Positions 38,887 to 53,855 of a stretch of 64,000 nucleotides of DNA are shown here, piece by piece. The stretch is taken from the IMG/VR virus record IMGVR_UViG_3300025326_000020, one strand, 5' to 3'. Under the pieces are notes generated by a model that did no database searches, was not told the origin of the DNA, and worked only from the letters and a program-made list of their open reading frames with translations. Positions within the stretch are counted from its first letter, which is position 1; each line of letters opens with the position of its first letter. The position numbers and the translations under genes are program-made. The DNA comes from a virus (lineage: Duplodnaviria > Heunggongvirae > Uroviricota > Caudoviricetes).

Positions 38887-39018
38887 CTGGTTCCTCCTGT
38901 AGGACTTCTTCCACTTCCTCTTCTACAACAAGAGGTTCAGTCTCGTCAATAGGTGCAAAGATTACTGTAGTAACTGTACTTCCGGTATCCATATTTTCTC
39001 CTTGTTGTAACAATAAAG

Positions 39019-39090
39019 TACCCCTGGTCAGAATCGAACTGACGACATTCTTATTAAGAGTAAGAAGCTCTACCACTGAGCTACAAGGGC
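39019..39090 (-). tRNA. tRNA-Lys (anticodon CTT)
   Basis: hand-folded cloverleaf: D-arm GCTCAGTGGTAGAGC, anticodon arm TCTTA-CTCTTAA-TAAGA, T-arm GTCAG-TTCGATT-CTGAC; 72 nt. Confidence 0.7.
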
Positions 39091-39308
39091 ATTTCGTTAG
39101 GAGCACAATACGATTGTGACAGATCTCCGTCACCGTGTCAAGCCCCCAACAATATTGATGTTTATCGATGGACACTAGCTAAGGACGAGACATAGTAGCA
39201 CAACCAACACAGTTAATACAATAGCTGTGACAGGAATTCGAACTACGTGTTCCTCACCTGTTTCTTTATTACGAAAACCAACTTCAATGTACTGCAATTT
39301 AGAACCAG

Positions 39309-39794
39309 TCACTTTACTTCTGGAAAATTAAGTTTAGCATGTTCCCCAAAAGCAATTATTGCTGCTCTATCATATGCCAATGCGGCCTCTTCTTCCAATA
39401 AATAATAACCTATATGCTGTCTTTTACCATTTACTTGCACTCTTACATACCACATCCTGTTTGTATTCGACCAAGTTACACCTTTGTACTTAGATAATCC
39501 TGGTCTACGTTTGATGCTATTGGCTCTATTCAACATATAGGTTGTTGGTCGAAGATTTATACGTCTGTTGTCAAGACCATCACCATTTTGGTGATCAGTC
39601 ATTTTAAATCCTGTAAGTAATATATGCATTTTTTGCATAGATTTTAAACCAGAAATTTTAGTTATACTTCTTAATGCATAAAAGATATTACCTTGTAGAT
39701 TACAATACCATTTATACTGTGATACCAGATCGTAGTCTTCATCGTCTACAAGAGCTGACTTATCACTCCTAAAGAGTTCAACTTGTTTTACCAT
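39309..39794 (-). CDS. HNH homing endonuclease with AP2 DNA-binding domain
   Basis: DHQNGDGLDNRRINLR HNH motif; C-terminal AP2-like YKGVTW...WYVRVQVNGKRQHIGYYLLEEEAALAYD. Confidence 0.75.
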   Translation of the reverse strand: MVKQVELFRSDKSALVDDEDYDLVSQYKWYCNLQGNIFYALRSITKISGLKSMQKMHILLTGFKMTDHQNGDGLDNRRINLRPTTYMLNRANSIKRRPGLSKYKGVTWSNTNRMWYVRVQVNGKRQHIGYYLLEEEAALAYDRAAIIAFGEHAKLNFPEVK

Positions 39795-39806
39795 AAGGAT
39801 TGCTCC

Positions 39807-40286
39807 TTAAAACCATGAGTAGTACGACCAACGGTCGTCATAGTGGATCAGTGTTGGTTCTATACCATTCTTAATTTCATGGCACCACATAAGCATTCGA
39901 CCAACCCTACCGTTACCGTCACGGAATGGATGAATGCGCTCGAATGATATGTGTGCCACTCTTGGACTAAGCTCTTGGCAATCCTCAATCCAATCCTTCA
40001 TTAGTTGTGGTACATATAGTGGGTTTGGACATGTGCGTCCACCAACTTCTACCCAACAATCGCGCCATTTACCAGGATCTTTCATCAGACTGCGCATAAC
40101 ATTCCAATGTAAATTCTTGATAGAAGTTTCAGTAACATCAAGATTTAACAATTCTTCAAACGCTTCCATTGAAGCTTGGTCTTGCGTTTTGTGATTTACA
40201 CCTTCAATAAGGTTTGATTGTCTAATATGTTCCATTGTAATTTCAGTCATTGTCATCCCAATCGAATCCATCGTCCGGGTCATCAT
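39807..40286 (-). CDS. Fic-domain protein (putative AMPylating/adenylyltransferase toxin-like)
   Basis: canonical Fic motif HPFRDGNGRVGR. Confidence 0.7.
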   Translation of the reverse strand: MMTRTMDSIGMTMTEITMEHIRQSNLIEGVNHKTQDQASMEAFEELLNLDVTETSIKNLHWNVMRSLMKDPGKWRDCWVEVGGRTCPNPLYVPQLMKDWIEDCQELSPRVAHISFERIHPFRDGNGRVGRMLMWCHEIKNGIEPTLIHYDDRWSYYSWF

Positions 40287-40548
40287 CGTCAGCCCAGTCT
40301 AATTCTTTACGTACCTCTTGCTTTGCTGCGTAATGTGCTTCGATCTCCACAATATCCTCTTCCTGCTTTGGCTGTGGGATTTGCGTAAGACCAAGCACGA
40401 GTCGATCATAGTTCATTTTACTAGGCTTGCGGCATCTAGTGCAAACCCACAGACCTGATGGTGGATCAAGTGAGAAACCATCTTGCTTTTGCCATTTACC
40501 AGTTGAGTGGCAGTTACACCACGGCTTAATGTTCATCTGAGTTATCAT
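40243..40548 (-). CDS. hypothetical protein with acidic C-terminus
   Basis: ORF. Confidence 0.4.
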   Translation of the reverse strand: MITQMNIKPWCNCHSTGKWQKQDGFSLDPPSGLWVCTRCRKPSKMNYDRLVLGLTQIPQPKQEEDIVEIEAHYAAKQEVRKELDWADDDDPDDGFDWDDND

Positions 40549-40579
40549 TGTTGTCCATTTCTAGTAATATTTGGAGGAG

Positions 40580-40652
40580 TACCCCTAGAGAGATTCGAAC
40601 TCCCAACCTACGCGGTAGAAACGCGCTGCTCTGTCCGTTGAGCTATAGGGGC
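40580..40652 (-). tRNA. tRNA-Arg (anticodon TCT)
   Basis: acceptor GCCCCTA/TAGGGGT; D-arm GCTCAACGGACAGAGC; anticodon arm GCGCG-TTTCTAC-CGCGT; T-loop TTCGAAT. Confidence 0.7.
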
Positions 40653-40655
40653 ATG

Positions 40656-40729
40656 TCTCATTGGAGAGATTCGAACTCTCAATCACCACACTTTGAATGT
40701 GGTCGCTTTGCCAGTTAGCGCACAATGAG
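40656..40729 (-). tRNA. class-I tRNA with leucine-type anticodon CAA (identity uncertain)
   Basis: perfect acceptor CTCATTG/CAATGAG; anticodon arm CCACA-TTCAAAG-TGTGG; 5-nt variable loop; T-arm GAGAG-TTCGAAT-CTCTC; discriminator A. Confidence 0.6.
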
Positions 40730-40736
40730 GATTCAA

Positions 40737-40991
40737 TTATGGGCATGTCCAACCATGGGGACCAGTTGGCATGCCCGCTTTTATGTAGCAACTATCACAG
40801 AGGAAGTGTCCATTATTTGGATTATAAGTACCTTCTTCTCTGATAACAGCTTTTATTCTCTTAGCTTGACGTTCCTCTTCCGTCGTTGCATTGTATGAAT
40901 CTTCATCTTCTGCCCATGTTCCATCATATGAAGTCATATCTCTTGCGTATCGTTCGCACATCGGATCGTATGGTTCAGGTATTTCATCCAA
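40737..40991 (-). CDS. hypothetical protein
   Basis: ORF. Confidence 0.4.
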   Translation of the reverse strand: MDEIPEPYDPMCERYARDMTSYDGTWAEDEDSYNATTEEERQAKRIKAVIREEGTYNPNNGHFLCDSCYIKAGMPTGPHGWTCP

Positions 40992-41172
40992 GGGTTTTTA
41001 TCAGCTCCTCAGTAGCCTTACAGTGTTCTAGTACAGCATCCATAGCTTCCTCTTGACTAGCAAGATCAAATCCTGATGTCTTATGAATTCGGCATAGCCA
41101 ACACCAACCACGATATTTCCATACTCGTAGCGGTCGGGCGACCTTATAGTTCTTCACACTGGTTTCATCCAT
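40984..41172 (-). CDS. hypothetical protein
   Basis: ORF. Confidence 0.35.
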   Translation of the reverse strand: MDETSVKNYKVARPLRVWKYRGWCWLCRIHKTSGFDLASQEEAMDAVLEHCKATEELIKTLG

Positions 41173-41378
41173 TGACCTGGTGTACTCTTTCCACAGTATA
41201 GACAGTAATCATGGTCTGGTATGCCACATTGGTCACGTTCTGGAAGATGTCCAGCGAATACGCAAAGTAGCTTTGGCAACCACGTTATGTGGTCATAAAT
41301 ATAATTAGTTAACCACTCTGGTTTACCATCCCAGATCCATAGCATTATTCTACGTCTTATTATGATATTCGCTCCCAC
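41154..41378 (-). CDS. hypothetical protein
   Basis: ORF. Confidence 0.35.
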   Translation of the reverse strand: MGANIIIRRRIMLWIWDGKPEWLTNYIYDHITWLPKLLCVFAGHLPERDQCGIPDHDYCLYCGKSTPGQWMKPV

Positions 41379-41541
41379 ATTACGCCGGAATCTTGGCCCA
41401 GATTAATAAATATCTTGTTCCAACGACCAGTGCAACGTCGACATCTATATAATGAGGTGCTACAAATCAATACTGGCTGTCTAGGTTCCATTATTCGTAT
41501 GCGAGCGTGTAGCCCAACCAGACAGAGAAGATTTGTCATAG

Positions 41542-41901
41542 TTATACCCGCTGAGGATCATATTCATCAGCAAACTTTTCCATCACACGGATAACTTCTT
41601 CCTTAGAAGAAGCCTTATGATCATTCCAGCCTGCAATACCGGAATCACTAATACCTGATGTTCTCATCCAGGTTTGAAATATTTGCATGGCTTGGTTTGC
41701 AAGACCAGTTCTAAAAAGATCACCATTGAAACCGTCTATATGTCCAGTAAGAGCAAACGCAATGACACCCATGGCACACATACCATCAGTAGGTGTACCT
41801 CGTGATCCTTTGATCCATTTTCTATCTGTTAGAACCTGAGCAGCCTTGCGGATAGCCCGACCAGCATTTTCCTCAATTGTTGGCTTCTTACGTCTAGTCA
41901 T
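41542..41901 (-). CDS. hypothetical protein
   Basis: ORF with RBS. Confidence 0.45.
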   Translation of the reverse strand: MTRRKKPTIEENAGRAIRKAAQVLTDRKWIKGSRGTPTDGMCAMGVIAFALTGHIDGFNGDLFRTGLANQAMQIFQTWMRTSGISDSGIAGWNDHKASSKEEVIRVMEKFADEYDPQRV

Positions 41902-42083
41902 TTTGTCTCCTAAGTTTTTAGATGGACACGGTGGGCGATGTCACTAAGTTGTGACGCAGACCATGATCGGTGCCCGTGAACTAATCATGCTGCCATTCCA
42001 TCCCATCCGTGCCCGTGATCTCTGGGTAGGGATTAGCCAACCGTTGACGTCATTGGTTTGGCCATCGTAGGGCGCCTCCCAGC

Positions 42084-42158
42084 GTTCTAGCGCAGAGGTT
42101 CGAACTCCAATTTCCAGATTCAGAATCTGGCGTCCTGCCAATTAGACGATGCTAGAAT
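42084..42158 (-). tRNA. tRNA-Gln-like (anticodon CTG); acceptor/D-arm registration is ambiguous
   Basis: anticodon arm CCAGA-TTCTGAA-TCTGG and T-loop TTCGAAC present; acceptor pairing TTCTAGC/GCTAGAA. Confidence 0.45.
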
Positions 42159-42164
42159 ATTTAG

Positions 42165-42389
42165 TTATTGTTCTCTCACATCTGGTAGTATTCCATGGTC
42201 CCTGTGGTTCTTTGCTACTTCAACCACAGCAACCAAATCATCTAGTTGCTCAGCATCTATAGTGATGTGCATGCCATGCGTAATTATCATATATGCGTTG
42301 CTAGCTAAATCATGAAATAGTCCGACTTCTTTCTTCCAAAAGAGACGAGTATAATTACGCATCGTAACACTTCTTTCCATCTTGTTCAA
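42165..42389 (-). CDS. hypothetical protein
   Basis: ORF. Confidence 0.35.
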   Translation of the reverse strand: MNKMERSVTMRNYTRLFWKKEVGLFHDLASNAYMIITHGMHITIDAEQLDDLVAVVEVAKNHRDHGILPDVREQ

Positions 42390-42600
42390 TGACGATAGTG
42401 TCTACCTGGCTTAGTCTATAAAATCCACTATCCTCATTGTATGGCATACCAGATGTTATATAATCTCTAGCTTCTTTTATGGTTTTGAACGATTTTATAG
42501 TTCGTCCACAACTTACTTGAAATGTTCTGAAATGCCACGGTTCTGGCGTTGTATATTTTGCATTGTGAGTCGTCACGAGCCAAGCGAGTGATTCGAACAC
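42355..42600 (-). CDS. hypothetical protein
   Basis: ORF; N-terminus overlaps tRNA-Thr by ~20 nt. Confidence 0.35.
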   Translation of the reverse strand: MFESLAWLVTTHNAKYTTPEPWHFRTFQVSCGRTIKSFKTIKEARDYITSGMPYNEDSGFYRLSQVDTIVIEQDGKKCYDA

Positions 42601-42649
42601 TCTACTCCTGTTTACAAGACAGGTGCTTTTCCCATTAAGCTAGCTTGGC
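42578..42649 (-). tRNA. tRNA-Thr (anticodon TGT)
   Basis: acceptor GCCAAGC/GCTTGGC; anticodon arm CCTGT-CTTGTAA-ACAGG; T-arm GAGTG-TTCGAAT-CACTC. Confidence 0.7.
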
Positions 42650-42657
42650 ATATTCAA

Positions 42658-43161
42658 TTATTCAAGCACCTTTTCGTATTGCTGTGGAAGTGTCCAACCT
42701 AGCAGTGATAGTCTACGCAGTGAGGTAGCAACCATACCACTACCTTGACCCGTAATTGGTGTATTGCCCATGACCTCTTCCATAATTCTTACGTAGTCAC
42801 GATCAATGATTAGGTATGGCAATAGGTTACTGACAATTACAACCATACCAGCACCAGTAACAGTCCATCGAGCTATTGCTGGAAGATAAAGATTTTCTAC
42901 TGGGACTTCACCTACGTGAGTGTGTGCATGTGGACAATGTTCTGAACATCCACGACGCATAAAATCTCTTACAGGTTGTGGTTTCTTTGCGTCAGCCTTT
43001 AAACCAGTTAGTACGCCAAGCTCTTGAATAACTGCAATCTCTTTACTTTCAACAGATAGTATAATTTGTGGAGTCGCTCGTTGCTTGTTGTGTTTACGCA
43101 GAAATCTTCCTTTTAAATCTATGACTCCTGCCATCCATCCTAGTTTAATATCTGGTATCAT
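42658..43161 (-). CDS. hypothetical protein with a degenerate LAGLIDADG-like motif
   Basis: GWMAGVIDLKGRF near the N-terminus; His/Cys cluster CSEHCPHAHTH. Confidence 0.4.
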   Translation of the reverse strand: MIPDIKLGWMAGVIDLKGRFLRKHNKQRATPQIILSVESKEIAVIQELGVLTGLKADAKKPQPVRDFMRRGCSEHCPHAHTHVGEVPVENLYLPAIARWTVTGAGMVVIVSNLLPYLIIDRDYVRIMEEVMGNTPITGQGSGMVATSLRRLSLLGWTLPQQYEKVLE

Positions 43162-43186
43162 CTTTATTCCTTTTTGTTGTCATGTG

Positions 43187-43261
43187 TACCGACGGTCAGA
43201 CTTGAACTGACAACCACTAACTTATAAGGTTAGCCGCACTGACCAATTGGCGTACGTCGGC
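43187..43261 (-). tRNA. tRNA-Ile (anticodon TAT)
   Basis: acceptor GCCGACG/CGTCGGT; anticodon arm CTAAC-CTTATAA-GTTAG; T-arm GTCAG-TTCAAGT-CTGAC. Confidence 0.6.
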
Positions 43262-43289
43262 TCGCCCCGAAGGGCTTTGTGCTTTTCTA

Positions 43290-43676
43290 TCAGGTGACTT
43301 CGACCCAGTACGACTCAACATCATCGTTGTGCCAGAATCCGAAGTTTGCAGACTGGTTTGGTGAAAGCGTCACAGAACCCTGACCAAACTGGTTCGAACA
43401 ACCAAGATTGTCGTGGAAGGTAATGTAGATTCCATTTCCGCCAGTCATCTTGTTAACAGCACTAGAGATAATGTTGCGCCATCCAGATGGAAGATTGGAA
43501 CATCCACCACCGCCAACGGAAATATCGTATCTACTGCCGTTACCACCAGAGTCAACATAAATGCAGGCCCGACCTGATGGGCAGGCAGAATATGATGCAC
43601 TAGCCGGTGACGCAATTACAATTACAAGTCCTAGTGAAACCAGGAGTGTTGCTAGAACTGCACGTACCTTGCGCAT
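43290..43676 (-). CDS. secreted small Cys-containing protein (beta/gamma-crystallin or I36 inhibitor-like)
   Basis: N-terminal signal peptide ...ASPASAS; paired Cys; Gly-rich beta strands. Confidence 0.5.
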   Translation of the reverse strand: MRKVRAVLATLLVSLGLVIVIASPASASYSACPSGRACIYVDSGGNGSRYDISVGGGGCSNLPSGWRNIISSAVNKMTGGNGIYITFHDNLGCSNQFGQGSVTLSPNQSANFGFWHNDDVESYWVEVT

Positions 43677-43740
43677 TTAAGCTCCTATTGTTATTATACG
43701 GATAACGGTGGTGTAATCCCACCCAAAGTTTACAGACTTC

Positions 43741-43953
43741 TCATATTAATTTTTCTAATTCTTCTCGAAAATATTCTGCTATTTCATCAATTGTTATTGT
43801 GCCTGCGTAGATAGCTTCTTCAATAGAACCCACAGGTAGCACAGTATCCTGTTTTCTGTCATCGTGTAACAAACTCCAGACTAACTGTGCTACCGTGCGC
43901 AATATTAATTCATGCTTTGTTCTACTCGCCCAGTTCTTTTTGTTCGAACTCAC
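43741..43953 (-). CDS. hypothetical protein
   Basis: ORF. Confidence 0.35.
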   Translation of the reverse strand: MSSNKKNWASRTKHELILRTVAQLVWSLLHDDRKQDTVLPVGSIEEAIYAGTITIDEIAEYFREELEKLI

Positions 43954-44122
43954 GCGAACCCATCACGAGTGTGTTGATTCTAGCTGCAAAATCTTGTGCC
44001 TCATGATCTCGCATTCTTAGAAATCCAGCATAAGCTCGGTGTTCCTCGTCAGGTCCGATATATACTCTAACCTCACGATGTTCACCTTGCAACTCAGTTA
44101 ACACTGCATGCATACTTGTCAT
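43922..44122 (-). CDS. hypothetical protein
   Basis: ORF. Confidence 0.35.
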   Translation of the reverse strand: MTSMHAVLTELQGEHREVRVYIGPDEEHRAYAGFLRMRDHEAQDFAARINTLVMGSREFEQKELGE

Positions 44123-44125
44123 GTG

Positions 44126-44413
44126 TTACTTCTTGCAGGTCGGATCATTTGGCACTACGGCAATGGCGCCATAGGGACTGTCACTATGGAAGAGTACATA
44201 CAAACGATTGCCATGATCACACTTAGTGGCCGCATTCGAGAATCCATCAGGCATGACAATAATATCGGCTGATTCAGTATTTTCAGTACCTGATCGTGGA
44301 GCATCGTTAAACGGTTCCTTTGCTTTGGCCCCACAACTAGTGGACAAGGCAACCGCAAGAATCCCAACAATTAGGCAAGCAAATAATGGTAGCAAAGACT
44401 TAATTTTAGTCAC
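44126..44413 (-). CDS. lipoprotein
   Basis: signal peptide with lipobox LSTSC. Confidence 0.55.
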   Translation of the reverse strand: MTKIKSLLPLFACLIVGILAVALSTSCGAKAKEPFNDAPRSGTENTESADIIVMPDGFSNAATKCDHGNRLYVLFHSDSPYGAIAVVPNDPTCKK

Positions 44414-45429
44414 TACTTGCCTCCGGCATTAGCACTAACAAGTACACCGCCACCAGCGGCCAAACATAGACCCGGCGGAACTCCCATCTTAACCGATTCC
44501 TCTATGCACTTGTTTTGTACATAAAGAGGTGTCAAAACCTGGGCTAGAAGGTCAGAAACGGCCTTTTCAGCCAGGGCGTTTGTCTTCTTCTGTGCTAGTA
44601 CTCTAGCCTGCGCGATAACATCCTGGAACTGCTGAATGTTCTTTTCAGTTTGTGCATCATGGTGTACTAGTGGAATGGATACAGTCTTGACATCTACCAG
44701 ACCGTCAAATGCCGTTACCAGCTTGTTCTTAACATCTGTTTGTAGCTGGGTACCATCAAACCCAACCTGACCAGTCTGTAGATTTACCTGAGACAGGGGG
44801 TTATAGGTTGCAAAAACGTCGTTAAGCGCGTTCTGAATAACTGTTTCATACAGATTGTTCTTAACATTATTGAAATCACCCTTGTAGTCAAGGAACAACT
44901 TAGGTGCACCAGTCTCAGTAACCTGTAGCTGGATCCTATTCTCTACACATGCAGTAGCAAGTGAGCCAATACGTACGGTAGTACAACCTTCCTTCCAATT
45001 ACCAAGATGGTTGATTGTGACTACAGACGCATCGAAGTCCTCAACACTCTGCCAAGGCCAAACGAAGTGCAAACCGCTACCTGTGGTGTCTCCAGTAGGA
45101 CGGTTGAACGTGCTAACAATACCAACATTCCGTACTGGCACAGTGTATGCACTAGCAAAGAACATTAATATAGCAGCTAACGAAGCTAGTGCAATTGTTA
45201 CTACCTTAGAGGAATTATGTTCAGCAGCAGCAGCAGATTCCATATCCTTCTTTGATGGGCGATCAACATAAGCTCGATAGTCGCTACTTGCGGTATCTGC
45301 TGCCACAGCCTTATCGTATTCACTTTTTGCCTCAATGAAATCTTTCTTTGCTGATTTCTTCCACAAAAAAGCAAGAACAGCAAGAACAGCAACAGTGATG
45401 CCTAGTACAAATTCCCAGCTCAATTTCAT
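44413..45429 (-). CDS. membrane-anchored SPFH/band-7 domain protein
   Basis: N-terminal transmembrane helix; VRNVGIVSTFNRP...GLHFVWPW resembles the SPFH core. Confidence 0.5.
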   Translation of the reverse strand: MKLSWEFVLGITVAVLAVLAFLWKKSAKKDFIEAKSEYDKAVAADTASSDYRAYVDRPSKKDMESAAAAEHNSSKVVTIALASLAAILMFFASAYTVPVRNVGIVSTFNRPTGDTTGSGLHFVWPWQSVEDFDASVVTINHLGNWKEGCTTVRIGSLATACVENRIQLQVTETGAPKLFLDYKGDFNNVKNNLYETVIQNALNDVFATYNPLSQVNLQTGQVGFDGTQLQTDVKNKLVTAFDGLVDVKTVSIPLVHHDAQTEKNIQQFQDVIAQARVLAQKKTNALAEKAVSDLLAQVLTPLYVQNKCIEESVKMGVPPGLCLAAGGGVLVSANAGGK

Positions 45430-45461
45430 TCCTTAAATAGTTGTCATTTTGACGTGTTACG

Positions 45462-45532
45462 TTCAAGCACCTAGATTCGAACTAAGACTACCATATCCAA
45501 AGTATGGTGGGCTACCCTTACCCCATGCTTGA
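45462..45532 (-). tRNA. tRNA-Gln (anticodon TTG)
   Basis: perfect acceptor TCAAGCA/TGCTTGA; anticodon arm CCATA-CTTTGGA-TATGG; T-arm CTTAG-TTCGAAT-CTAGG. Confidence 0.65.
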
Positions 45533-45710
45533 TTATATTGCAGAGTTAAATGCGGATATAACACGTGCTGGTTTACCATCTTCATTTGGGTCAGACACGC
45601 GTCTAATCGCTTCTGACAAAACACTGTCAGGATCTAACTTCCACAACTCATTGAGTGGAAGCTTAGTTATATCAACCAAACCATCAGGTTGATGTTCCAT
45701 ATGACACTCC

Positions 45711-46202
45711 TCACTTTATGTCGATGAGCTGATTTGTTATTGGTGACAGCACCTGTACTTCCAAGACACCATCACAACCAGAAACATATGCACGTAATCT
45801 ACCAAGAGTTATGTACCAAATGTCTTCTTTAATTTCCATTCTAGATATATCAGAAATCTCCGACCGTCGACTAAGAGCACGCTGAGTTAAATTGGCTGCT
45901 TCTCTAAGATTGACTATATGCTTAACTATCTCACCATTAAGATCGAATGCTCTGGCTCTGAATCTGTAGCCGAGTCCAATAGAATAACGTTTGATGTCGA
46001 CCATGAATAAATTATTGGGATCAGTGGTTTCTATTCTACCTATAGTGTACTTAGACACACCAATCTTAACCCCAAGTTCGGGCTGTGTTGGTATTTTTGG
46101 CGTTAGTGCCCGACGAAGTTCGCCGAGTAACATTTCTATCCTTTCACTAGGACCAAGAATTGGGCTGGTGATATGAAATTTCAAATTCCATAGTCTTGCC
46201 AT
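45711..46202 (-). CDS. helix-turn-helix DNA-binding protein
   Basis: HTH segment ELGVKIGVSKYTIGRIE. Confidence 0.45.
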   Translation of the reverse strand: MARLWNLKFHITSPILGPSERIEMLLGELRRALTPKIPTQPELGVKIGVSKYTIGRIETTDPNNLFMVDIKRYSIGLGYRFRARAFDLNGEIVKHIVNLREAANLTQRALSRRSEISDISRMEIKEDIWYITLGRLRAYVSGCDGVLEVQVLSPITNQLIDIK

Positions 46203-46329
46203 GGAACTGCGTGTTATATTCTATATCTTTAATATCAATACCGTCATTGTTTAACATAGCATGAAATATGGCTTCCGAAACAATCAACCATTCAGCAGCA
46301 CCGAATGGTTTTACGCTAAATACTTTCAC
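46147..46329 (-). CDS. hypothetical protein
   Basis: ORF. Confidence 0.3.
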   Translation of the reverse strand: MKVFSVKPFGAAEWLIVSEAIFHAMLNNDGIDIKDIEYNTQFHGKTMEFEISYHQPNSWS

Positions 46330-46330
46330 G

Positions 46331-46403
46331 TCCCCCCGACAGGACTCGAACCTGCGTCTATGCCTTAAAAGGGCACAGCTAATTCCATCTCAGCTACGGA
46401 GGG
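46331..46403 (-). tRNA. tRNA-Lys (anticodon TTT)
   Basis: acceptor CCCTCCG/CGGGGGG; anticodon arm GTGCC-CTTTTAA-GGCAT; T-arm GCAGG-TTCGAGT-CCTGT. Confidence 0.65.
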
Positions 46404-46411
46404 CTATTCAG

Positions 46412-46774
46412 TTATAATACTTCCCATAGTGCGCGGTGACGATGTCGAGGATTAATAGGTACCACGTCCTCGACATCGTCTTTGTCCATCTTGATTATAT
46501 CACGTGCCTGCATGCGCCAGGTATTACGTGCCTTACCGTTGTCTTCCTGAACATATGAATCAAGCCAACCGCCAGGACGACCATATAGTTTGCTGCCCAG
46601 AGTACTGTAGTAACCATATGCTGGTTTGTATCCACAGGTGATGTCACTGTAAAACTTGATGACCTGACCGTCGAAATCACAATCTTTGTTATGGTGATTG
46701 TGATGTTCAATACGGAGATTAGGATTCTTAGCAACCTGAATCTCCCAACGATCCGTCTTGTCTGTCATTGACAA
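46412..46774 (-). CDS. hypothetical protein
   Basis: ORF. Confidence 0.4.
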   Translation of the reverse strand: MSMTDKTDRWEIQVAKNPNLRIEHHNHHNKDCDFDGQVIKFYSDITCGYKPAYGYYSTLGSKLYGRPGGWLDSYVQEDNGKARNTWRMQARDIIKMDKDDVEDVVPINPRHRHRALWEVL

Positions 46775-46804
46775 GATTACCTTTCCACGTTGGACCTTCC
46801 AACG

Positions 46805-47188
46805 TTACCTTACAACATCATCGTCTCCTTTACCATCGAAGGCATCCTCTTGTAGGTGCCAGCAGTGTTCACAACCATCTTTCCAGCATGGTTCGTCTTT
46901 TTTAAAGATTGCCTTGGCAGCAACACATCCTGCTTCTACTGGTAGTACTAGCAATTCCTCTTGTTTTTTGCTCATCCAGTGAAATGTCTCTGTATATGAG
47001 CTATACCACCAAGATTGAAATTTTGTGTTCTCTTCTTTATTTCCAAGATGTTCGAATATCCACCCTGATACTCCACAGCAAGGACATATACGATCTGTTA
47101 GCCACTCATAGATATTAGACCACCATGGTGCTTCAACTATAGCAACGTGGTCGCCATCTTTGTGATACCAAACATGAACTCTTAACAT
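46805..47188 (-). CDS. Cys-rich hypothetical protein
   Basis: ORF. Confidence 0.4.
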   Translation of the reverse strand: MLRVHVWYHKDGDHVAIVEAPWWSNIYEWLTDRICPCCGVSGWIFEHLGNKEENTKFQSWWYSSYTETFHWMSKKQEELLVLPVEAGCVAAKAIFKKDEPCWKDGCEHCWHLQEDAFDGKGDDDVVR

Positions 47189-47225
47189 GTGTCCTCCTCG
47201 GACTTAGATACTGTCATTGTCCATG

Positions 47226-47432
47226 TTATATCACCACCTCACTACTGAAAGGATGACTTTCTCTAAGGTGAGCCTGCACAGCTTCCACAAGTCCTCTTAC
47301 ATAGTAACCACCAAGAACAGCAGGTAAGTCCTGTTCGAAATCTGGACATTCATCACAATATAAGAAGACCATTAATTCATCAAATTTACTTGACCATGGA
47401 ACTATTCGCATTGTATCTAAAATACTTGACAT
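47226..47432 (-). CDS. hypothetical protein
   Basis: ORF. Confidence 0.35.
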   Translation of the reverse strand: MSSILDTMRIVPWSSKFDELMVFLYCDECPDFEQDLPAVLGGYYVRGLVEAVQAHLRESHPFSSEVVI

Positions 47433-47433
47433 G

Positions 47434-47504
47434 CTCCCATACCTGGAATCGAACCAAGATCATGTGATTAACAGTCACAGGTTTTGCCATTAAACTATAC
47501 GGGA
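47434..47504 (-). tRNA. tRNA-Asn (anticodon GTT)
   Basis: acceptor TCCCGTA/TATGGGA; D-arm GTTTAATGGCAAAAC; anticodon arm TGTGA-CTGTTAA-TCACA; T-arm CTTGG-TTCGATT-CCAGG. Confidence 0.7.
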
Positions 47505-47533
47505 TTGACCACCACCGTAGTGATGGCTTGAAA

Positions 47534-48502
47534 TTATTCTGCGTGTAGTGAGGTGCTATTCAATGCAGCCTTACAAGCTGTAGTCACATCGTCAACAGTT
47601 AGACTGGTTGTTGGCAGCTTTGCGACGATAGCTGCCGCCAATGCTTCGATGTCTATTTCTATTGATTTTTCTGTGTTTAAATATGTACCATTCAACACAC
47701 CTAAAGTGGTCATTTCTGCTGGTATACCACGACCAGCATATTGCCACGGAATAGCCCGAAGTTGAGTTCTAATTATGTCATTGATTTCCTCTTTGCCAAT
47801 TAAGGCTCCAGCAAGAAACTTGTTGAACTCATCCTGTGTCATATTATCCTCCGAAGCGGCAATGAATTCCTGTAGTTGCACAAGCGTACCACGATATGCA
47901 TTGGCATCGCAAGTTGTTTGGTTGCCAATAGTTGTCATAGATCCATACTGTAGAATTTCTACCTTTTTACCTACAACAGGGTTCCAGCGCGAGGATGTGT
48001 CACCAGGGTAAGTCTTCTTATAGTGTGCTGTTGGGTTAGTTCCGTAGTTACTAGACCATAAAGGATACTTTAAATCTTTTAATTTATCGCCGTACAGCCA
48101 CGGGGGCGCGTACGCAAATATCGACGACGCAGGGCTGCCTGTACGGGCCTGCAAGGCCACTCCGAACGCGTTGACTTCCGCTATCGTCGGAGCGCGATCC
48201 ATGTACGGAAACTTCTCAGCATCAATTTGCCATATCCACGATACGTCTTTCCACCATGGTGTTTCAGCATTGACGATCTGTAAAAACCAATCTATCTGGT
48301 CAGTTACCGAGCCAGGATGATTAACATAGTAGGCACCAAGAACAGGAATACCAAGTCCTTTAGCTGCATTGAGTGCGGCTTTGTATTCGCTATCCTTGTA
48401 GCTGTGGTGACCCTCTGCACACTTGTGCGTGTAAAAGTCAATGCCATCTCTGACTGTTGGTGGTGCATCATAGTGACTAGTTTCGATCCCAGCCGTAAAC
48501 GG
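47534..48502 (-). CDS. endolysin, GH25 muramidase N-terminal domain + C-terminal domain; the annotated Met (48202) is internal and the catalytic region extends upstream without a canonical start in frame
   Basis: upstream in-frame translation ...GIETSHYDAPPTVRDGIDFYTHKCAEG...GLGIPVLGAYYV matches GH25 motifs; an ATG at 48504-48506 is in the +1 frame (MTVYGWDRN-stop). Confidence 0.55.
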   Translation of the reverse strand, partial: PFTAGIETSHYDAPPTVRDGIDFYTHKCAEGHHSYKDSEYKAALNAAKGLGIPVLGAYYVNHPGSVTDQIDWFLQIVNAETPWWKDVSWIWQIDAEKFPYMDRAPTIAEVNAFGVALQARTGSPASSIFAYAPPWLYGDKLKDLKYPLWSSNYGTNPTAHYKKTYPGDTSSRWNPVVGKKVEILQYGSMTTIGNQTTCDANAYRGTLVQLQEFIAASEDNMTQDEFNKFLAGALIGKEEINDIIRTQLRAIPWQYAGRGIPAEMTTLGVLNGTYLNTEKSIEIDIEALAAAIVAKLPTTSLTVDDVTTACKAALNSTSLHAE

Positions 48503-48522
48503 TCATGGTGGCATCACCTCTC

Positions 48523-48966
48523 TTAAGATAAGCCTCTGTGCTTATCACGTCTGATTTTAGCACACTTCTTACAAGTGCGCTTGTTCTTACTGTTCATCAG
48601 ATTGTCCTCGGTTAGAGGATGTCCACGCAGACAGAATTCTTTTTCAGAATTTATTTTACTGATACCATGTAAACCTTCGCGTGAAGCGTTGGCATTAATT
48701 GTTTTAGGTTCCATATGATATGGATTACAGCATATCGAGTTGTCGCACAGATGATCGATAACCAAACCATTTGGTATATCACCAATTAATAACTCATATG
48801 CAACACGATGAGCGTAGTAATGAAAACCTCTTAATCTAAAGTCGCCATACCCTTTACCTGCTGAGACTACACTCTTAGTCCAAGGCCAACAACCCTCTGG
48901 ACCAGTGAGATCTACCTTAGACCAAAAGGTAGAAATCTCAATGTACTCAATAGGAAAGGTCGTCAT
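48523..48966 (-). CDS. HNH endonuclease
   Basis: GLVIDHLCDNSICCNPYHMEP HNH core. Confidence 0.65.
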   Translation of the reverse strand: MTTFPIEYIEISTFWSKVDLTGPEGCWPWTKSVVSAGKGYGDFRLRGFHYYAHRVAYELLIGDIPNGLVIDHLCDNSICCNPYHMEPKTINANASREGLHGISKINSEKEFCLRGHPLTEDNLMNSKNKRTCKKCAKIRRDKHRGLS

Positions 48967-48967
48967 C

Positions 48968-49153
48968 CTACTCCTCGCTTGGCGCTGGAGTATGTCTGTT
49001 CCCGTCAGTCAGTACTTTGTGACAATTCACGCAGTCAAAGTAAGTTTCATCTGTTTCGTCTAAAGCTTCTTCTAATGTAATTGCTTTGTCGCCTTCAACT
49101 TCTTCGGTGCATAGAGCATGTAGCTTTGGTTCATCTAGTACATGAATTGTCAT
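48968..49153 (-). CDS. small zinc-ribbon protein
   Basis: CVNCHKV...C. Confidence 0.35.
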   Translation of the reverse strand: MTIHVLDEPKLHALCTEEVEGDKAITLEEALDETDETYFDCVNCHKVLTDGNRHTPAPSEE

Positions 49154-49159
49154 GTGTTA

Positions 49160-49235
49160 CCTCCTTGATTCAGTAGCAAGAATCGAACTTGCACATTGAC
49201 GCCGAGTAACCAGCCGCCTCTTCCATTTGGGCTAT
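49160..49235 (-). ncRNA. tRNA-like element or pseudogene with no foldable anticodon arm
   Basis: perfect acceptor TTCAGTA/TACTGAA and T-arm GCAAG-TTCGATT-CTTGC; 74 nt; central region fails to form a 5-bp/7-nt anticodon arm. Confidence 0.4.
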
Positions 49236-49368
49236 ACTGAACTTAGTAAGTTAAGGTTACTGCTAGCGACCTCCACAGCATACGTACGATACTGACGGAA
49301 CCCATTCGCCTGACCCGTATAGTCCTACTGCCATCGTGCCCGTCGACACTCCCTCACCTTAACTTACG

Positions 49369-49441
49369 CGCGATCGACCGGATTCGAACCGGCATACCCC
49401 ACCTTGACAGGGTGGTTCATTAACCATTATGATACAACCGC
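49369..49441 (-). tRNA. tRNA-Asp (anticodon GTC)
   Basis: acceptor GCGGTTG/CGATCGC (two G-U pairs); D-arm TCATAATGGTTAATGA; anticodon arm CCACC-CTGTCAA-GGTGG; T-arm GCCGG-TTCGAAT-CCGGT. Confidence 0.65.
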
Positions 49442-49557
49442 AAGTGAGTACTTCCGAATGATATGCCACAGTCAAACACATTCGGATTAGCATGACAATC
49501 GTACCTAGCTGTGGCCGGTATTCATGCCGTGACGGTACTCGCGCCAACTCTTAGGTG

Positions 49558-49854
49558 TTACTGGAATTTCTTGTGAAGCTTTATCTTAGCTAGTGTGTTA
49601 TTCCTGTTGACCATAGGCCCTGTGGTGCTTACGTGCAGGTCAGACAGAATCTCATCTATTACATCGTTGCGAATTTTATCCTCAACTCTGCTCCGATATG
49701 CTTTCATCACTGGTGTTAGTTTATCCAACATGTGATCACCTATACCAACAAAAAAGTCAGCTAGTGCATCAGCTTCTTCCGTTGTCATATCAGTATCACG
49801 GTGTGCATTTACCAGGAACTTGTTGCGTATCGCATCGGCTGTAACAGTTAACAT
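49558..49854 (-). CDS. hypothetical protein
   Basis: ORF. Confidence 0.4.
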   Translation of the reverse strand: MLTVTADAIRNKFLVNAHRDTDMTTEEADALADFFVGIGDHMLDKLTPVMKAYRSRVEDKIRNDVIDEILSDLHVSTTGPMVNRNNTLAKIKLHKKFQ

Positions 49855-50046
49855 TTATAACTCCACTAGTTCTATTCGTGTACTATAGTTGAATCATCAT
49901 ATTCAGTTGGCCCGTCCTTGTACAACTCACGGTACTGTTTGAGTCCAATTGAAAACTCGAACGCGCGGTCGCTATCACCTTTGATTTCCGCACGCTTTAT
50001 TTCAAGTAAGTATTCACGTTCAATAGTATCAAACTTCTTGCTCATG

Positions 50047-50119
50047 TGGACAGTATCGGATTCGAACCGATCGCCTTCGCATTGCAGGTGCGATGCTCTA
50101 CCTAATGAGCTAACCGCCC
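50047..50119 (-). tRNA. tRNA-Ala (anticodon TGC) with unusual C33
   Basis: D-arm GCTCATTAGGTAGAGC; anticodon arm TCGCA-CCTGCAA-TGCGA; T-arm ATCGG-TTCGAAT-CCGAT. Confidence 0.6.
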
Positions 50120-50216
50120 TAGTGAGTGCTGTTCTATGTAGTTAACACTACAGATCTCAAACTTTATGGAATACCTCGCGAGTACCCAATGGCTAGCACT
50201 CATAGCCAAGATTATA

Positions 50217-51218
50217 TCAGTTGATAAGCAGCAACTTAGTACCAGGAACCAACTTGCGGTTCACCGATGTTGATTGCACAAATACGTCGAACTTGTCATT
50301 ATCTTCTGGTGAAACTCGAACTTCTTCTGGACGCAAACCAAGCATATCACGAACCTGATCACCTGAGAAGACTCTGCCTGTGGATTTTTCTAGTACAGCA
50401 ATGTTCTTTTGTGGTTGAATAGATTCTCTCTTTGTAAGTTGGTAGTAAGCAATACCAAGGTAAAAGTTGTGTCCCTTGCCAATTACCCACTCACGAATAG
50501 GAGCAGCTTCATCAACATCAAGCATAGTGAATTTGGTTTTAGGCAGTGCCTTAAGCTTCGCTGCCTTGATGGTAGCCTTGTTTAGTGCAGTTGCATCCAT
50601 CTGGAATAAAGATCTGGAACCACGCACACCCGATGTTCGACTAACCATGAAATTTTCAGTTGCTTGTCTGATAGTCTTACCAACTTCAACAACACCTTGT
50701 GCACTGGTAGCATCCCAAATTGCGATGTTGTCTGCTGGGAAACCAAACTTCTTAGCTTCAAATTTGCACCGTTGATCAGGTACTAAGACAGCCACAGTCC
50801 AATGATCTGGTTGTGTTGCCAATCGGTTGAGTAGATCTGATGGACGTCGATGACTTGCATTTTCCTGTCCATCAGTAAGAACGTATGTTAGGAACGCGTG
50901 ATCTCCATAAAGTTCAGGAGTATGTCCTAGATCTTCTTGTGACTTTAGAGTTGCATCGATCAGTGCAGTCATTCCCGCCGTACGGTAGTGCTTTGCAATA
51001 GATGGCAGACGAAGAACATCCTTGTCGTATACCACGCACTGTACAGCATCGGAAAAGACATAAACACTAACTCTAGTTTCTTGATCCAATTCCTTAGATC
51101 GTTGTGCTAGGTATGCGGTTTGTGCATCTGCCACCTGAACAACTTCTCTTGACAAATCTCTCATGGAGTCAGATGCATCAAGAACAAGAGCAATGTGATT
51201 AATATAATTTGCTGACAT
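50217..51218 (-). CDS. von Willebrand factor A (vWA) domain protein
   Basis: N-terminal MIDAS-like LVLDASDSM...VYVFSD; 333 aa. Confidence 0.6.
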   Translation of the reverse strand: MSANYINHIALVLDASDSMRDLSREVVQVADAQTAYLAQRSKELDQETRVSVYVFSDAVQCVVYDKDVLRLPSIAKHYRTAGMTALIDATLKSQEDLGHTPELYGDHAFLTYVLTDGQENASHRRPSDLLNRLATQPDHWTVAVLVPDQRCKFEAKKFGFPADNIAIWDATSAQGVVEVGKTIRQATENFMVSRTSGVRGSRSLFQMDATALNKATIKAAKLKALPKTKFTMLDVDEAAPIREWVIGKGHNFYLGIAYYQLTKRESIQPQKNIAVLEKSTGRVFSGDQVRDMLGLRPEEVRVSPEDNDKFDVFVQSTSVNRKLVPGTKLLLIN

Positions 51219-51247
51219 GATATCCCTTTTGTTATAGTTTAATTGAG

Positions 51248-51319
51248 TAGTCCCATAGGGAATCGAACCCTATCCTACGCGGTGAAAGCGCGCAAAGCTA
51301 ACCAATACTCAATGGGACC
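51248..51319 (-). tRNA. tRNA-Glu (anticodon TTC)
   Basis: acceptor GGTCCCA/TGGGACT; anticodon arm GCGCG-CTTTCAC-CGCGT; T-arm TAGGG-TTCGATT-CCCTA. Confidence 0.65.
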
Positions 51320-51520
51320 GAATGCTCAGATGTACTTATTACCTACCATACCTTGTTGAGCTAGCTTACCTAACCGTCGCCAGGTAGAATGTACTTTCTG
51401 CAACTGATCTGGACGGTTAATTGTACTGGTAAACTTGTTCAGGAACTCACGTTCGATGGTACTATATGGCGTTTTAGTGCTGTATACCAGCGTGTTGTCT
51501 ACCATGAGCCCATTTCCTGT

Positions 51521-51709
51521 CTAGTCGAATACCTTGTTACAATTGGTACAAACCCATCGCCTCTTACCATTAATTGGTGGCAATGATTTTATATAGCTAA
51601 CAACCGGTATGGCATTGGGATCATGATGCCAACATCTTTGTTGAATTCTTTTTATAGTTGATATAGCAGTAATTGCGAATTTATACTTGAATACAACAAA
51701 TTCCATCAA
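51521..51709 (-). CDS. small zinc-ribbon protein
   Basis: C-terminal WVCTNCNKVF. Confidence 0.35.
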   Translation of the reverse strand: MMEFVVFKYKFAITAISTIKRIQQRCWHHDPNAIPVVSYIKSLPPINGKRRWVCTNCNKVFD

Positions 51710-52092
51710 GAACCAACCTGTTGACCGTCATTGTCCCAGTGAAACTCAACCACTGGTCGGTGCACACGACAGTTAACACAGTAAGTGGCACCGTAAAATT
51801 TTGGGTCACGAGCATAGGTTTCTGAAATCGATTGTGACATTGTTGTTACAACACCACAGTAATCGTGTACATAGCTGTTGCGGTAAGGTCTAACAAAACC
51901 CTTACCACGTTCCTCTTCGGACAGAACCAAATAAACCTCAGCCTGTGGTACTGGCGGCCCATCTAATGATTCTGCCCCACGTGTTAATCTAGGATCGCTA
52001 GGATCAGATGTTGTTCCTGTCATCGTATCTCCACTGGTGTCAGGTTGGCATGACCTCATCCCATACCAGCTTCTTAGTTCAGTGTTCCGCAC
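51706..52092 (-). CDS. hypothetical protein (YCVNCRVHRP motif)
   Basis: ORF. Confidence 0.4.
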   Translation of the reverse strand: MRNTELRSWYGMRSCQPDTSGDTMTGTTSDPSDPRLTRGAESLDGPPVPQAEVYLVLSEEERGKGFVRPYRNSYVHDYCGVVTTMSQSISETYARDPKFYGATYCVNCRVHRPVVEFHWDNDGQQVGS

Positions 52093-52175
52093 CTGAATAA
52101 TATAAGAAGCCGCTCTTTGAACCTCTAGTACTTATGCGGTCCGTACTGTGTTACGAGTCTAAGCTACACCTGACG

Positions 52176-52247
52176 TCGGGATAGAAGGAATTGAACCTTC
52201 TGCCTCTCGCTCCCAAAGCGAGCGTTCTTCCGATGAACTATATCCCG
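52176..52247 (-). tRNA. tRNA-Pro (anticodon TGG)
   Basis: perfect acceptor CGGGATA/TATCCCG; anticodon arm CTCGC-TTTGGGA-GCGAG; T-arm GAAGG-TTCAATT-CCTTC. Confidence 0.7.
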
Positions 52248-52387
52248 TATGTATTAGGAGGGGAATTAGTTTTGCTGGCGCTAGCAATTCCATGGATACC
52301 ATTGCACTCTTTGAGGAACCAGACAGCGATCAACTTGCTGGCGATGCATAGTCGTCAACTACATCCCCTGTCTAACACGACTACCTG

Positions 52388-52460
52388 TCGACTACTCAGG
52401 AGTTGAACCTGAATCTCCCATGTTATCAGCATGGTGCTTTACCTGTTAAGCTAATAGTCG
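52388..52460 (-). tRNA. tRNA-Ile (anticodon GAT)
   Basis: acceptor CGACTAT/GTAGTCG; D-arm GCTTAACAGGTAAAGC; anticodon arm CCATG-CTGATAA-CATGG; T-arm TCAGG-TTCAACT-CCTGA. Confidence 0.7.
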
Positions 52461-52631
52461 TTGGATGGTGATGAAAATTACCTCACATCCATGTTTCTAT
52501 CTAATCGGCCAGATCGTATAGCATGGATTCTTTTGGCTCTAATCAACGGAGTATGAACAGAACGGCTCACTTGTTAACATACTCTTTTACCATCTAGGTT
52601 TCCTATAGATCGTGCACTATCTACTGGTCCC

Positions 52632-52712
52632 GTGGGTCGGAAGGATTCGAACCTTCATCACCGGCATTGCTGCCCGCTCTACCATTTGAGCTACTAACCC
52701 TCGAACAGCGCA
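52632..52712 (-). ncRNA. tRNA-like element: canonical D-arm and T-arm, GNRA tetraloop hairpin (GGCA-GCAA-TGCC) in place of the anticodon arm, mismatched acceptor; 3' side ends in the CGACCCAC repeat
   Basis: D-arm GCTCAAATGGTAGAGC; T-arm GAAGG-TTCGAAT-CCTTC; no anticodon loop; 5'/3' acceptor strands not complementary. Confidence 0.45.
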
Positions 52713-52853
52713 ATCTTCGTCTTCCAGGACTAGGATACTATTGCTGCCGGTCCCCTGGAAAGGACTTGCACAGAACAGGATTATGAGTCCTGCCCAGTAC
52801 CTTTATCGTGGAGAGTGGTTAGCTCTCCACGCCCGGTTACCAGCCGGGAGCTA

Positions 52854-53087
52854 TTATGGCTTTACTACACCGTGCACAGTAATCTGCATTTGATCACTGT
52901 CTGTCGGTGTGTACTCTTTATGTTCCTGAACAGATACTCTACTTTCTGGAACCATGTTCTTACATTGTTCTACTAACCAACGTAGATCTTCTAGAGTTAT
53001 AGGTTCGTTTATAGATATATCAGTTTGTATTTTTCTACTCACGTGGGGAATCATGGATTTGAACCACTCGTTTGGATTCCGGCCCAA
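52854..53087 (-). CDS. hypothetical protein
   Basis: ORF; partly overlaps a degenerate tRNA-like element. Confidence 0.3.
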   Translation of the reverse strand: MGRNPNEWFKSMIPHVSRKIQTDISINEPITLEDLRWLVEQCKNMVPESRVSVQEHKEYTPTDSDQMQITVHGVVKP

Positions 53088-53122
53088 ACTTTACCGTGCG
53101 TGCACGTCTGCACATCCCCTAT
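53045..53122 (-). ncRNA. degenerate tRNA-like element (T-loop TTCAAAT, GGGG/CCCC ends)
   Basis: T-loop and partial acceptor only; no canonical D or anticodon arms. Confidence 0.3.
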
Positions 53123-53165
53123 GTCGTTGACATTCAGCCTAGCAAGCATGAGCAGCAATGTCAAG

Positions 53166-53381
53166 CTAGATTTCCTCTTGATCACTAGGCTGTCTATGTT
53201 GCTTACGCTTGTTCTTAATTGCGTAGAATGTCCTATTTAACCGTTTTGCTAGTTGCTGGATGCTTAGATCACCAGTGGCTATCAGTGCAATCTCCCAGTC
53301 TTCCCACGGTTGGTGGTTTCTGGTTGCATATGCTAACGATCTGGCTTGACGTGATTGCTCTATTGCTTTTCTTCTAGCCAT
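53166..53381 (-). CDS. small HTH DNA-binding protein (start moved to internal Met to clear the tRNA)
   Basis: LSIQQLAKRLNRTFYAIKNKR helix-turn-helix-like. Confidence 0.4.
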   Translation of the reverse strand: MARRKAIEQSRQARSLAYATRNHQPWEDWEIALIATGDLSIQQLAKRLNRTFYAIKNKRKQHRQPSDQEEI

Positions 53382-53411
53382 AATTTCCAAAGTTTCTACT
53401 ATTTTACGAAG

Positions 53412-53835: not shown

Positions 53836-53855
53836 GATTTCTCCTGATCATTGTC

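Follow-up and report, generated by a model that had tools for sequence, protein, structure and literature searches.

Three short-variable-arm tRNA-Leu genes in the tRNA array of an uncultured siphovirus

Results

The tRNA array and its surroundings

The DNA analysed here (the window, 64,000 nucleotides) belongs to an uncultured siphovirus, probably an actinophage. The plus strand of positions 1-19250 carries a siphovirus structural module (Mu-like prohead protease, tail tube, tape measure), while the replication genes are found on the minus strand (a PolA-UDG fusion, primase, SNF2 helicase, ThyX and a PD-(D/E)XK nuclease) and are followed by a tRNA array. In the DNA polymerase (22143-24464, minus strand) UDG, 3'-5' exonuclease and PolA domains are fused. 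Read with the standard code, the 64 kb window holds 103 non-overlapping ORFs with a total length of 55.4 kb, and their Pfam matches are normal. The features on which this study is centred are as follows.

39018..63267, minus strand (all genes): dispersed tRNA array, 27 tRNA or tRNA-like genes (ARAGORN, Rfam)
40656..40729, minus strand: tRNA-Leu(CAA), class I, 74 nt, subtype B (ARAGORN, Rfam)
53412..53484, minus strand: tRNA-Leu(TAA), class I, 73 nt, subtype A (ARAGORN, Rfam)
54650-56281, minus strand: Ro60/TROVE and vWA protein, 543 aa, embedded in the tRNA array
60607..60679, minus strand: tRNA-Leu(TAG), class I, 73 nt, subtype A (ARAGORN, Rfam)

Between the array tRNAs there are small ORFs and the genes of HNH endonucleases, of an M23 peptidase, of a Fic protein and of the Ro60-like protein. 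A further contig (L001), 99.985% identical to positions 50969-64000 of the window, runs 7.6 kb further, and the array comprises 29 genes when the tRNA-Met and the tRNA-Val past the window end are included. The 3' ends of the array genes are uniform: in all 27 of them C74 is encoded directly after the discriminator, and position 75 is G in 12, T in 8 and A in 7 genes and never C, thus CCA is never encoded. A role of the invariant C74 as a signal for 3' processing is possible; for leucylation in S. coelicolor this nucleotide has been reported to be essential.

The gene of the Fic/DOC-domain protein (39807-40286, minus strand) is found downstream of Leu(CAA), at a distance of a few hundred bases, past a tRNA-Arg(TCT) and a small ORF, and a Fic/DOC gene occupies the same place in two metagenomic relatives of the phage (L006, L008).

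Structure of the three tRNA-Leu genes

All three tRNA-Leu genes are on the minus strand, which the initial annotation had left unstated. Rfam (RF00005, gathering score 29) matched them at 40656-40729, 53412-53484 and 60607-60679 with 56.0, 57.4 and 57.6 bits, respectively, and E-values of 1e-9 to 1e-10; the coordinates, and hence the 73-74 nt lengths, are identical to those claimed initially. ARAGORN, which had been named as a means of checking the calls, reported Leu(caa) at 40655-40729, Leu(taa) at 53411-53484 and Leu(tag) at 60606-60679, that is, the Leu isotype with the same structures and the same CAA, TAA and TAG anticodons. The ARAGORN bracket structures, the Rfam alignment and the MFE folds all gave cloverleaves with acceptor, anticodon and T stems of 7, 5 and 5 bp. 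The paired stems, the 5-nt variable loops and the discriminator A, as described initially, could be seen in the ARAGORN brackets as well as in the MFE folds: the variable loops are TGATT (CAA), TAAGT (TAA) and AAAGT (TAG), with no extra arm, and A73 is present in all three. The 7-nt anticodon loops, each with U33, are TTCAAAG, TTTAAGT and TTTAGGT in the same order.

The three genes differ from each other in the D arm and at the acceptor end. Leu(CAA) has a 4-bp D stem (CGCT/AGCG) with the D loop AACTGGCAA, its acceptor ends in a C1-G72 pair, and a tRNA-Arg(TCT) is located 3 nt downstream. Leu(TAA) has U8 A9, a 3-bp D stem (GCC/GGC) and the D loop CAACGGCAGA; it carries an A31-C39 mismatch that is kept in the L006 orthologue, the helices of the three genes being otherwise intact. 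In Leu(TAG) the D arm is CCC-CAATGGCAGA-GGG, the terminal pair is a G1-U72 wobble, and a tRNA-His follows 2 nt downstream. The 3-70 pair is C3-G70, U3-A70 and C3-G70 in Leu(CAA), Leu(TAA) and Leu(TAG), so that G3-U70 occurs in none of them.

Neither a long variable arm (a stem-loop of more than 10 nt) nor a G at position 9, the marks of canonical class II tRNA-Leu, was present in the trio; the reference for the latter (UG at positions 8-9) was provided by the class II Leu tRNAs of L006, L008 and Streptomyces phage Moab. UUG, UUA and CUA, the codons of the three anticodons, are sense codons and not stop codons, to which CTA, TTA and TCA anticodons would correspond, and thus a suppressor or recoding tRNA was not recognised among the three. 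With ARAGORN no class II tRNA-Leu was detected in the whole window or in the 7.6 kb L001 extension, which adds a tRNA-Val and a tRNA-Met only. Among the genes of the window a long arm is found only in two tRNA-Ser (86 nt) and in a tRNA-like gene of 88 nt (63050-63137) with a 6-nt anticodon loop, in agreement with the initial statement that the window holds no long-arm tRNA-Leu. The contrary outcome envisaged there, a canonical class II tRNA-Leu set beside three genes scoring as pseudogenes, is not what was observed: class II is absent and the three genes score 56-57.6 bits in Rfam. An origin of the trio as recent, anticodon-shifted copies of other array tRNAs was considered and found to be unsupported, the identities within the window being only 60-73%.

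Conservation and covariation

Relatives of the phage were gathered via homologous proteins and the contigs that encode them. The metagenomic relatives L004, L005, L006/L007 and L008/L009 have approximately 68% nucleotide identity to the window, over a few aligned kb, and the order of the tRNA array is kept in L004-L009. Orthologues of Leu(TAA) were found at the syntenic position in L004, L006 and L008, and in the class I orthologues of Leu(TAG) in L004 and L005 compensatory changes are seen in three stems (acceptor, anticodon, T). In an alignment (A1) of 44 class I tRNA-Leu of phage and bacterial origin, including all three window tRNAs, 98.5% of the cells pair and changes on both sides occur in 18 of the 20 pairs. 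The covariation score of A1 was 0.885, against 0.200 for shuffled alignments (0/500 reached the observed score) and at most 0.141 for slid registers, and U8, A14, A15, G18, G19 and A73 are invariant columns. The structure of class I tRNA-Leu is under selection.

The same array positions are not always occupied by the same class. At the Leu(TAG) position the window, L004 and L005 have a class I gene, and L006 and L008 a class II gene (82 nt); at the Leu(TAA) position a class I gene is found in the window, L004, L006 and L008 and one of 82 nt in L005; the tRNA-Tyr is class II in L004, L005 and L008 and short in the window and L006. The class II orthologues at these positions (L005, L006, L008, Moab) are 82-84 nt long and have different D stems. 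Since close relatives carry class II genes at the same positions, the lifestyle of the phage does not demand a short arm, and the alternation of the two classes at syntenic positions means that the variable arm is dispensable and labile in this lineage.

Two body types and their anticodons

Leu(TAA) and Leu(TAG) share a body (subtype A) with U8 A9, a 3-bp D stem, the D loop CAAYGGCAGA and the variable loop NNAGT. This body was searched for with the pattern CCAAYGGYAG-N9-14-TNAR-N9-AGY-N5-TTCRA, in which all stems were left free and Phe anticodons were permitted. One genome per bacterial species was scanned and at least 120 matches were obtained; among those listed, 120 of 120 were called tRNA-Leu by ARAGORN, with lengths of 73-79 nt and the anticodons TAA (48), CAA (34), TAG (32), CAG (4), GAG (1) and AAG (1), and Phe in no case. 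The bacterial matches listed come mostly from Actinomycetota, with Nocardioides, Nocardiopsis, Arthrobacter, Microbacterium, Micromonospora, Thermobifida and Streptosporangium among the genera, and they include complete acI genomes of 1.3-1.5 Mb (Ca. Planktophila, IMCC26103). The gene is the sole tRNA within an 8-kb locus in 107 of the 120 bacterial matches listed, and the few non-actinobacterial ones among them lie in arrays of 10-21 tRNAs. In IMG/VR at least 120 loci were found, and 125 of the 125 tRNAs recovered from the matches listed had Leu anticodons.

Leu(CAA) does not have the subtype A signature (CCAAYGGYAG D loop, NNAGY variable loop) and carries AACYGGMAAAGC ... TGNNT instead. The body defined by it (subtype B, with the D arm AACTGGCAAAGC and the variable loop TGNNT) was searched for in IMG/VR, the scan of bacterial genomes having covered subtype A. 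It was found in 36 contigs, all 36 with Leu anticodons (TAG 21, CAA 8, GAG 4, CAG 2, TAA 1), and the subtype B D arm also occurs in the tRNA-Leu of Gordonia phage Boopy, in L008 and in the Leu(caa) of Mycobacterium phage Bonray. Taken together, the two body types are present in at least 156 IMG/VR contigs, exclusively with Leu anticodons among the matches listed, and all 281 independent occurrences of subtypes A and B among the matches listed have Leu anticodons, even though Phe was permitted.

Comparison with known short-arm tRNA-Leu

The initial annotation started from the premise that bacterial Leu tRNAs are class II. This is contradicted by the type I tRNA-Leu(CAA) of Streptomyces coelicolor (PMC6614811) and by the chromosomal genes of Actinomycetota. 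The S. coelicolor gene is chromosomal and has the 5-nt variable loop ACAGC (Fan et al., NAR 2019, PMC6614811). Its product is leucylated by ScoLeuRS, the single LeuRS of this organism, with a Km of 0.16 uM and a kcat/Km approximately 44% as high as with the type II UAA isoacceptor; for this charging the 5-nt variable loop is the minimum, sufficient and necessary length, and U8-A14 matters (PMC6614811). The type I tRNA was not charged by E. coli LeuRS or by one Streptomyces LeuRS, ScoLeuRS does not charge human mt-tRNA-Leu(UUR), and there are 145 UUA codons in the entire S. coelicolor genome (PMC6614811). As in the window trio, the 5-nt variable loop of the S. coelicolor tRNA is combined with a Leu anticodon, U8-A14, G18G19 and A73. 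The comparison was made via the published variable loop and the genome scan, and ACAGC fits the NNAGY of window Leu(TAA) and Leu(TAG) and of the Moab Leu(caa), whereas window Leu(CAA) differs from its S. coelicolor counterpart in D-arm and variable-loop subtype. In S. coelicolor only the CAA isoacceptor is type I, encoded on the chromosome and charged by the single LeuRS beside type II isoacceptors, while all three Leu isoacceptors of the window phage are type I.

The chromosomal class I tRNA-Leu of Actinomycetota share the 3-bp D stem, the CCAAYGGYAG D loop, the NNAGY variable loop and A73 with Leu(TAA) and Leu(TAG). They have TAA, CAA and TAG anticodons, their identity to Leu(TAA) reaches 81-84%, and a Nocardioides chromosomal Leu(TAG) (L023) has an anticodon arm identical to that of window Leu(TAG). 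The Actinomycetota copies are single chromosomal genes with GC-rich acceptor-stem variants, and some of them encode CCA, whereas the phage copies are AT-richer and encode C74 only.

Class I tRNA-Leu genes were also found with ARAGORN in the following cultured phages.

Lactobacillus phage LP65: Leu taa, tag and caa (73-74 nt), the same trio as in the window
Bacillus phage BCP78: Leu tag (73 nt)
Rhodococcus phage Francesca: Leu tag (76 nt)
Mycobacterium phage Bonray: Leu gag (74 nt) and caa (75 nt)
Streptomyces phage Wakanda: Leu caa (74 nt)
Streptomyces phage Moab: Leu caa (75 nt), in an array similar to that of the window
Gordonia phage Boopy: Leu caa (75 nt)

The end-to-end BLAST matches of the trio in cultured phages are features annotated as tRNA-Leu. 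Window Leu(TAG) is 79.5% identical, end to end, to an annotated tRNA-Leu of BCP78, and Leu(TAA) is 78-85% identical to the Francesca tRNA-Leu and to bacterial class I genes, e.g. those of Nocardioides (L040, L023). Like the window genes, the class I genes of the cultured phages are 73-76 nt long, have the subtype A or B signature and A73, and lie within tRNA clusters, but their sequence identity to the trio is only 74-85%. A class II tRNA-Leu is kept by Moab (tag, 84 nt), BCP78 (taa, 88 nt, ARAGORN) and Bonray (cag, 86 nt), while the window phage has none. The hosts of the cultured phages include Firmicutes, and the class I charging known from the literature is that of S. coelicolor.

Mycobacterial tRNA gene clusters contain a short-variable-loop tRNA-Leu(TAG), as opposed to the normal class II chromosomal isoacceptor (PMC6582537). 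As far as its description allows comparison, this gene resembles the window genes in being class I and part of a multi-tRNA cluster with an HNH endonuclease gene; unlike them, it is in a bacterial chromosome, possibly on a mobile element. The type I tRNA-Leu of animal mitochondria shares the short variable loop and A73, but it is organellar and served by a dedicated mitochondrial LeuRS, and it is an analogy, not a relationship.

Host and codon usage

Megablast of positions 38000-62000 against cultured phages gave no match. The PolA-UDG fusion and the major capsid protein had only distant tblastn matches (below 34% identity) in phages of many hosts, therefore these proteins give no host or family assignment; over 1200 homologues of the capsid protein were found in metagenomes, on contigs of 75-180 kb. 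With proteins of Streptomyces phages (Stanwilliamsviridae: Moab, Gilson, Peebs and others), which likewise hold the gene inside similar tRNA arrays, the Ro60-like protein shares about 52% identity, and with those of Mycobacterium phages about 37%. A locus-pattern search for this protein in IMG/VR gave no match, and no Y RNA was detected in the window by Rfam at the gathering threshold. DUF6197 and Inhibitor_I36 domains are encoded in the window and DUF397 in the relatives L005-L007. From the Ro60-like protein and these three domains we infer that the host is an actinobacterium.

GC3 of the 103 ORFs is 36%. Their 1490 Leu codons are distributed as CTA 25%, CTT 22%, TTA 17%, TTG 15%, CTG 12% and CTC 8%. 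CUA, UUA and UUG thus make up 57% of the phage Leu codons, and the trio would serve 57-69% of them. A phage LeuRS was looked for by Pfam scanning of the four largest ORFs (880, 773, 737 and 585 aa) and no synthetase match was obtained; three of them contain tape-measure, PolA and primase domains, and the 585-aa ORF has no Pfam match.

Discussion

The three genes are, with a probability of about 0.85, functional phage type I tRNA-Leu isoacceptors, of the type used by Actinomycetota chromosomes and many phages. Their structure, conservation and covariation, the coupling of their bodies to Leu anticodons, the single chromosomal genes in Actinomycetota and the codon usage were observed here, and the leucylation of a type I tRNA-Leu(CAA) is known from the literature. 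The best reading of their biology is an ordinary one, namely host-type Leu isoacceptors which supplement decoding. The trio would be transcribed from the phage tRNA array and its 3' ends matured by host enzymes, which would also add CCA, because only C74 is encoded. By analogy with actinobacterial LeuRS, which accepts a 5-nt variable loop, U8-A14 and an intact elbow, the host LeuRS would leucylate the three tRNAs. The E. coli and one Streptomyces LeuRS fail on the type I tRNA, so function would depend on the LeuRS type of the host. The CAA anticodon is predicted to read UUG, UAA to read UUA/UUG and UAG to read CUA/CUG, which are the Leu codons most used by this AT-rich phage. Such codons are rare in high-GC actinobacteria, and if the presumed host is one of them, UUA, UUG and CUA would be expected to be poorly served there; the benefit for the phage assumes a host GC-richer than the phage itself and would be weaker in a low-GC actinobacterium.

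Out of the three options offered initially, unusual Leu isoacceptors accords with the class I structure and the Leu anticodons, while nothing speaks for mischarged or recoding tRNAs or for decoys, the 281 occurrences listed being Leu-only and the genes normal in the standard code. For recoding, a class I body would have to be taken by a non-Leu synthetase and UUA, UUG or CUA read as another amino acid. Class I architecture is indeed atypical for tRNA-Leu in most bacteria, the C1-G72 pair of Leu(CAA) is unusual, and, as LeuRS ignores the anticodon, a foreign body with a Leu anticodon would in principle mistranslate. Both bodies, however, are Leu-only in those 281 occurrences with Phe permitted, the subtype A body is the single-copy chromosomal tRNA-Leu of many Actinomycetota, leucylation of type I tRNA-Leu has been shown in vitro (PMC6614811), all 44 sequences of A1 have A73, and no G3-U70 pair exists in the trio. 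Recoding would moreover hit 57% of the Leu codons, including those of PolA, ThyX and SNF2, which have normal Pfam matches, and we regard it as very improbable. Hardly more credible is the notion of decaying, non-functional tRNAs carried along in a large array. Some array neighbours do look degenerate (the short tRNA-Tyr scores 26.8 bits, and a 'Ser(ACT)' gene and the tRNA-His are missed by Rfam), but the trio scores 56-57.6 bits with helices intact apart from the one conserved A31-C39 mismatch, and it is conserved with compensatory substitutions in relatives at about 68% nucleotide identity.

The tRNAs could also still be Leu acceptors in which the short arm was selected as an escape from tRNA-targeting nucleases or other factors, of the host or of competitors, that single out class II tRNA-Leu (and tRNA-Tyr) by the long arm. 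Evasion of anticodon nucleases by phage tRNAs is a known theme, the class I/II flips at the syntenic positions of Leu(TAG), Leu(TAA) and Tyr suggest repeated turnover, and outside Actinomycetota the class I Leu genes among the matches listed stand in tRNA arrays or mobile-looking contexts. Against this, no nuclease, specific defence or counter-defence gene is linked to the trio, and the simplest source of the short arm is the chromosomal class I tRNA-Leu of the presumed host clade; selection of this kind therefore seems improbable. A wider scheme is also unlikely. It holds that this lineage of soil phages repeatedly loses or regains the Leu (and Tyr) long arm at the same array positions, the window phage being fully 'armless' for Leu, that the turnover is adaptive, e.g. 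through escape from nucleases or host factors, and that the arrays spread type I tRNA-Leu to actinobacterial chromosomes and to the arrays of other phyla.

As ordinary type I tRNA-Leu isoacceptors, the three genes have little weight as a discovery, and they add to a type already known from Actinomycetota and phages. They do call for a correction: the rule that bacterial tRNA-Leu is class II only fails in Actinomycetota and in many phages, therefore the combination of a short tRNA with a Leu anticodon is no reason to flag an anomaly or a pseudogene. The tight coupling of the short-arm bodies to Leu anticodons could hint at the host clade of uncultured phages, namely one with actinobacterial-type LeuRS, and the class I/class II switching among close relatives is a natural experiment on the dispensability of the variable arm.

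Other atypical tRNA genes of the array

The 88-nt gene at 63050-63137 (minus strand) was labelled 'tRNA-???' by ARAGORN and scored 50.3 bits with the Rfam tRNA model. Its acceptor stem and T arm are normal, the D arm is GCTC-AATGGCA-GAGC, A73 is present, and past the anticodon arm a hairpin with a 4-bp stem and a 4-nt loop is followed by an 8-nt single-stranded stretch. The idea of a hidden class II tRNA-Leu was rejected as unsupported, since its 5-bp stem and 6-nt loop GTATTA do not provide the register of a 7-nt anticodon loop. A gene of identical architecture was found in L005 (11765-11852, plus strand); the acceptor stem, the anticodon stem, the loop (TAAGGT) and the hairpin differ between the two, the helices being preserved via changes on both sides. 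The 88-nt gene is located near the site of a tRNA-Trp in the relatives.

The tRNA-Tyr(GTA) of the window (60280-60352, minus strand) and that of L006 (13838-13908) are short (71-73 nt) and have a reduced D arm, and GGC...GCC flanks could lengthen the anticodon stem. The window gene scores 26.8 bits in Rfam, under the gathering score of 29. The syntenic tRNA-Tyr genes of L004, L005, L008 and Streptomyces phage Moab are class II (80-87 nt). Short tRNA-Tyr genes are rare (2 versus 30 among the 155 viral loci fetched) and are more unusual than the Leu tRNAs.

A 75-nt gene at 49167-49241 (minus strand), called tRNA-Ser(ACT) by ARAGORN, resembles class I Leu in the D arm (TAGCCCAAATGGAAGAGGC); its anticodon stem is badly paired, and it was missed by Rfam at the gathering threshold. 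The odd anticodon arm is shared by an orthologue in L004 (16147-16221). The gene is perhaps a degenerate tRNA, or else it encodes a tRNA-like RNA of other function. The tRNA-His(GTG) called by ARAGORN at 60531-60604 (minus strand) has G-1 and an irregular D arm, and it was not reported by Rfam even at E<=1 in a 521-nt search. Two further Rfam tRNA matches on the minus strand, at 52633-52700 (35.3 bits) and 62363-62421 (29.0 bits), have no ARAGORN call and may be tRNA remnants or further atypical tRNAs.
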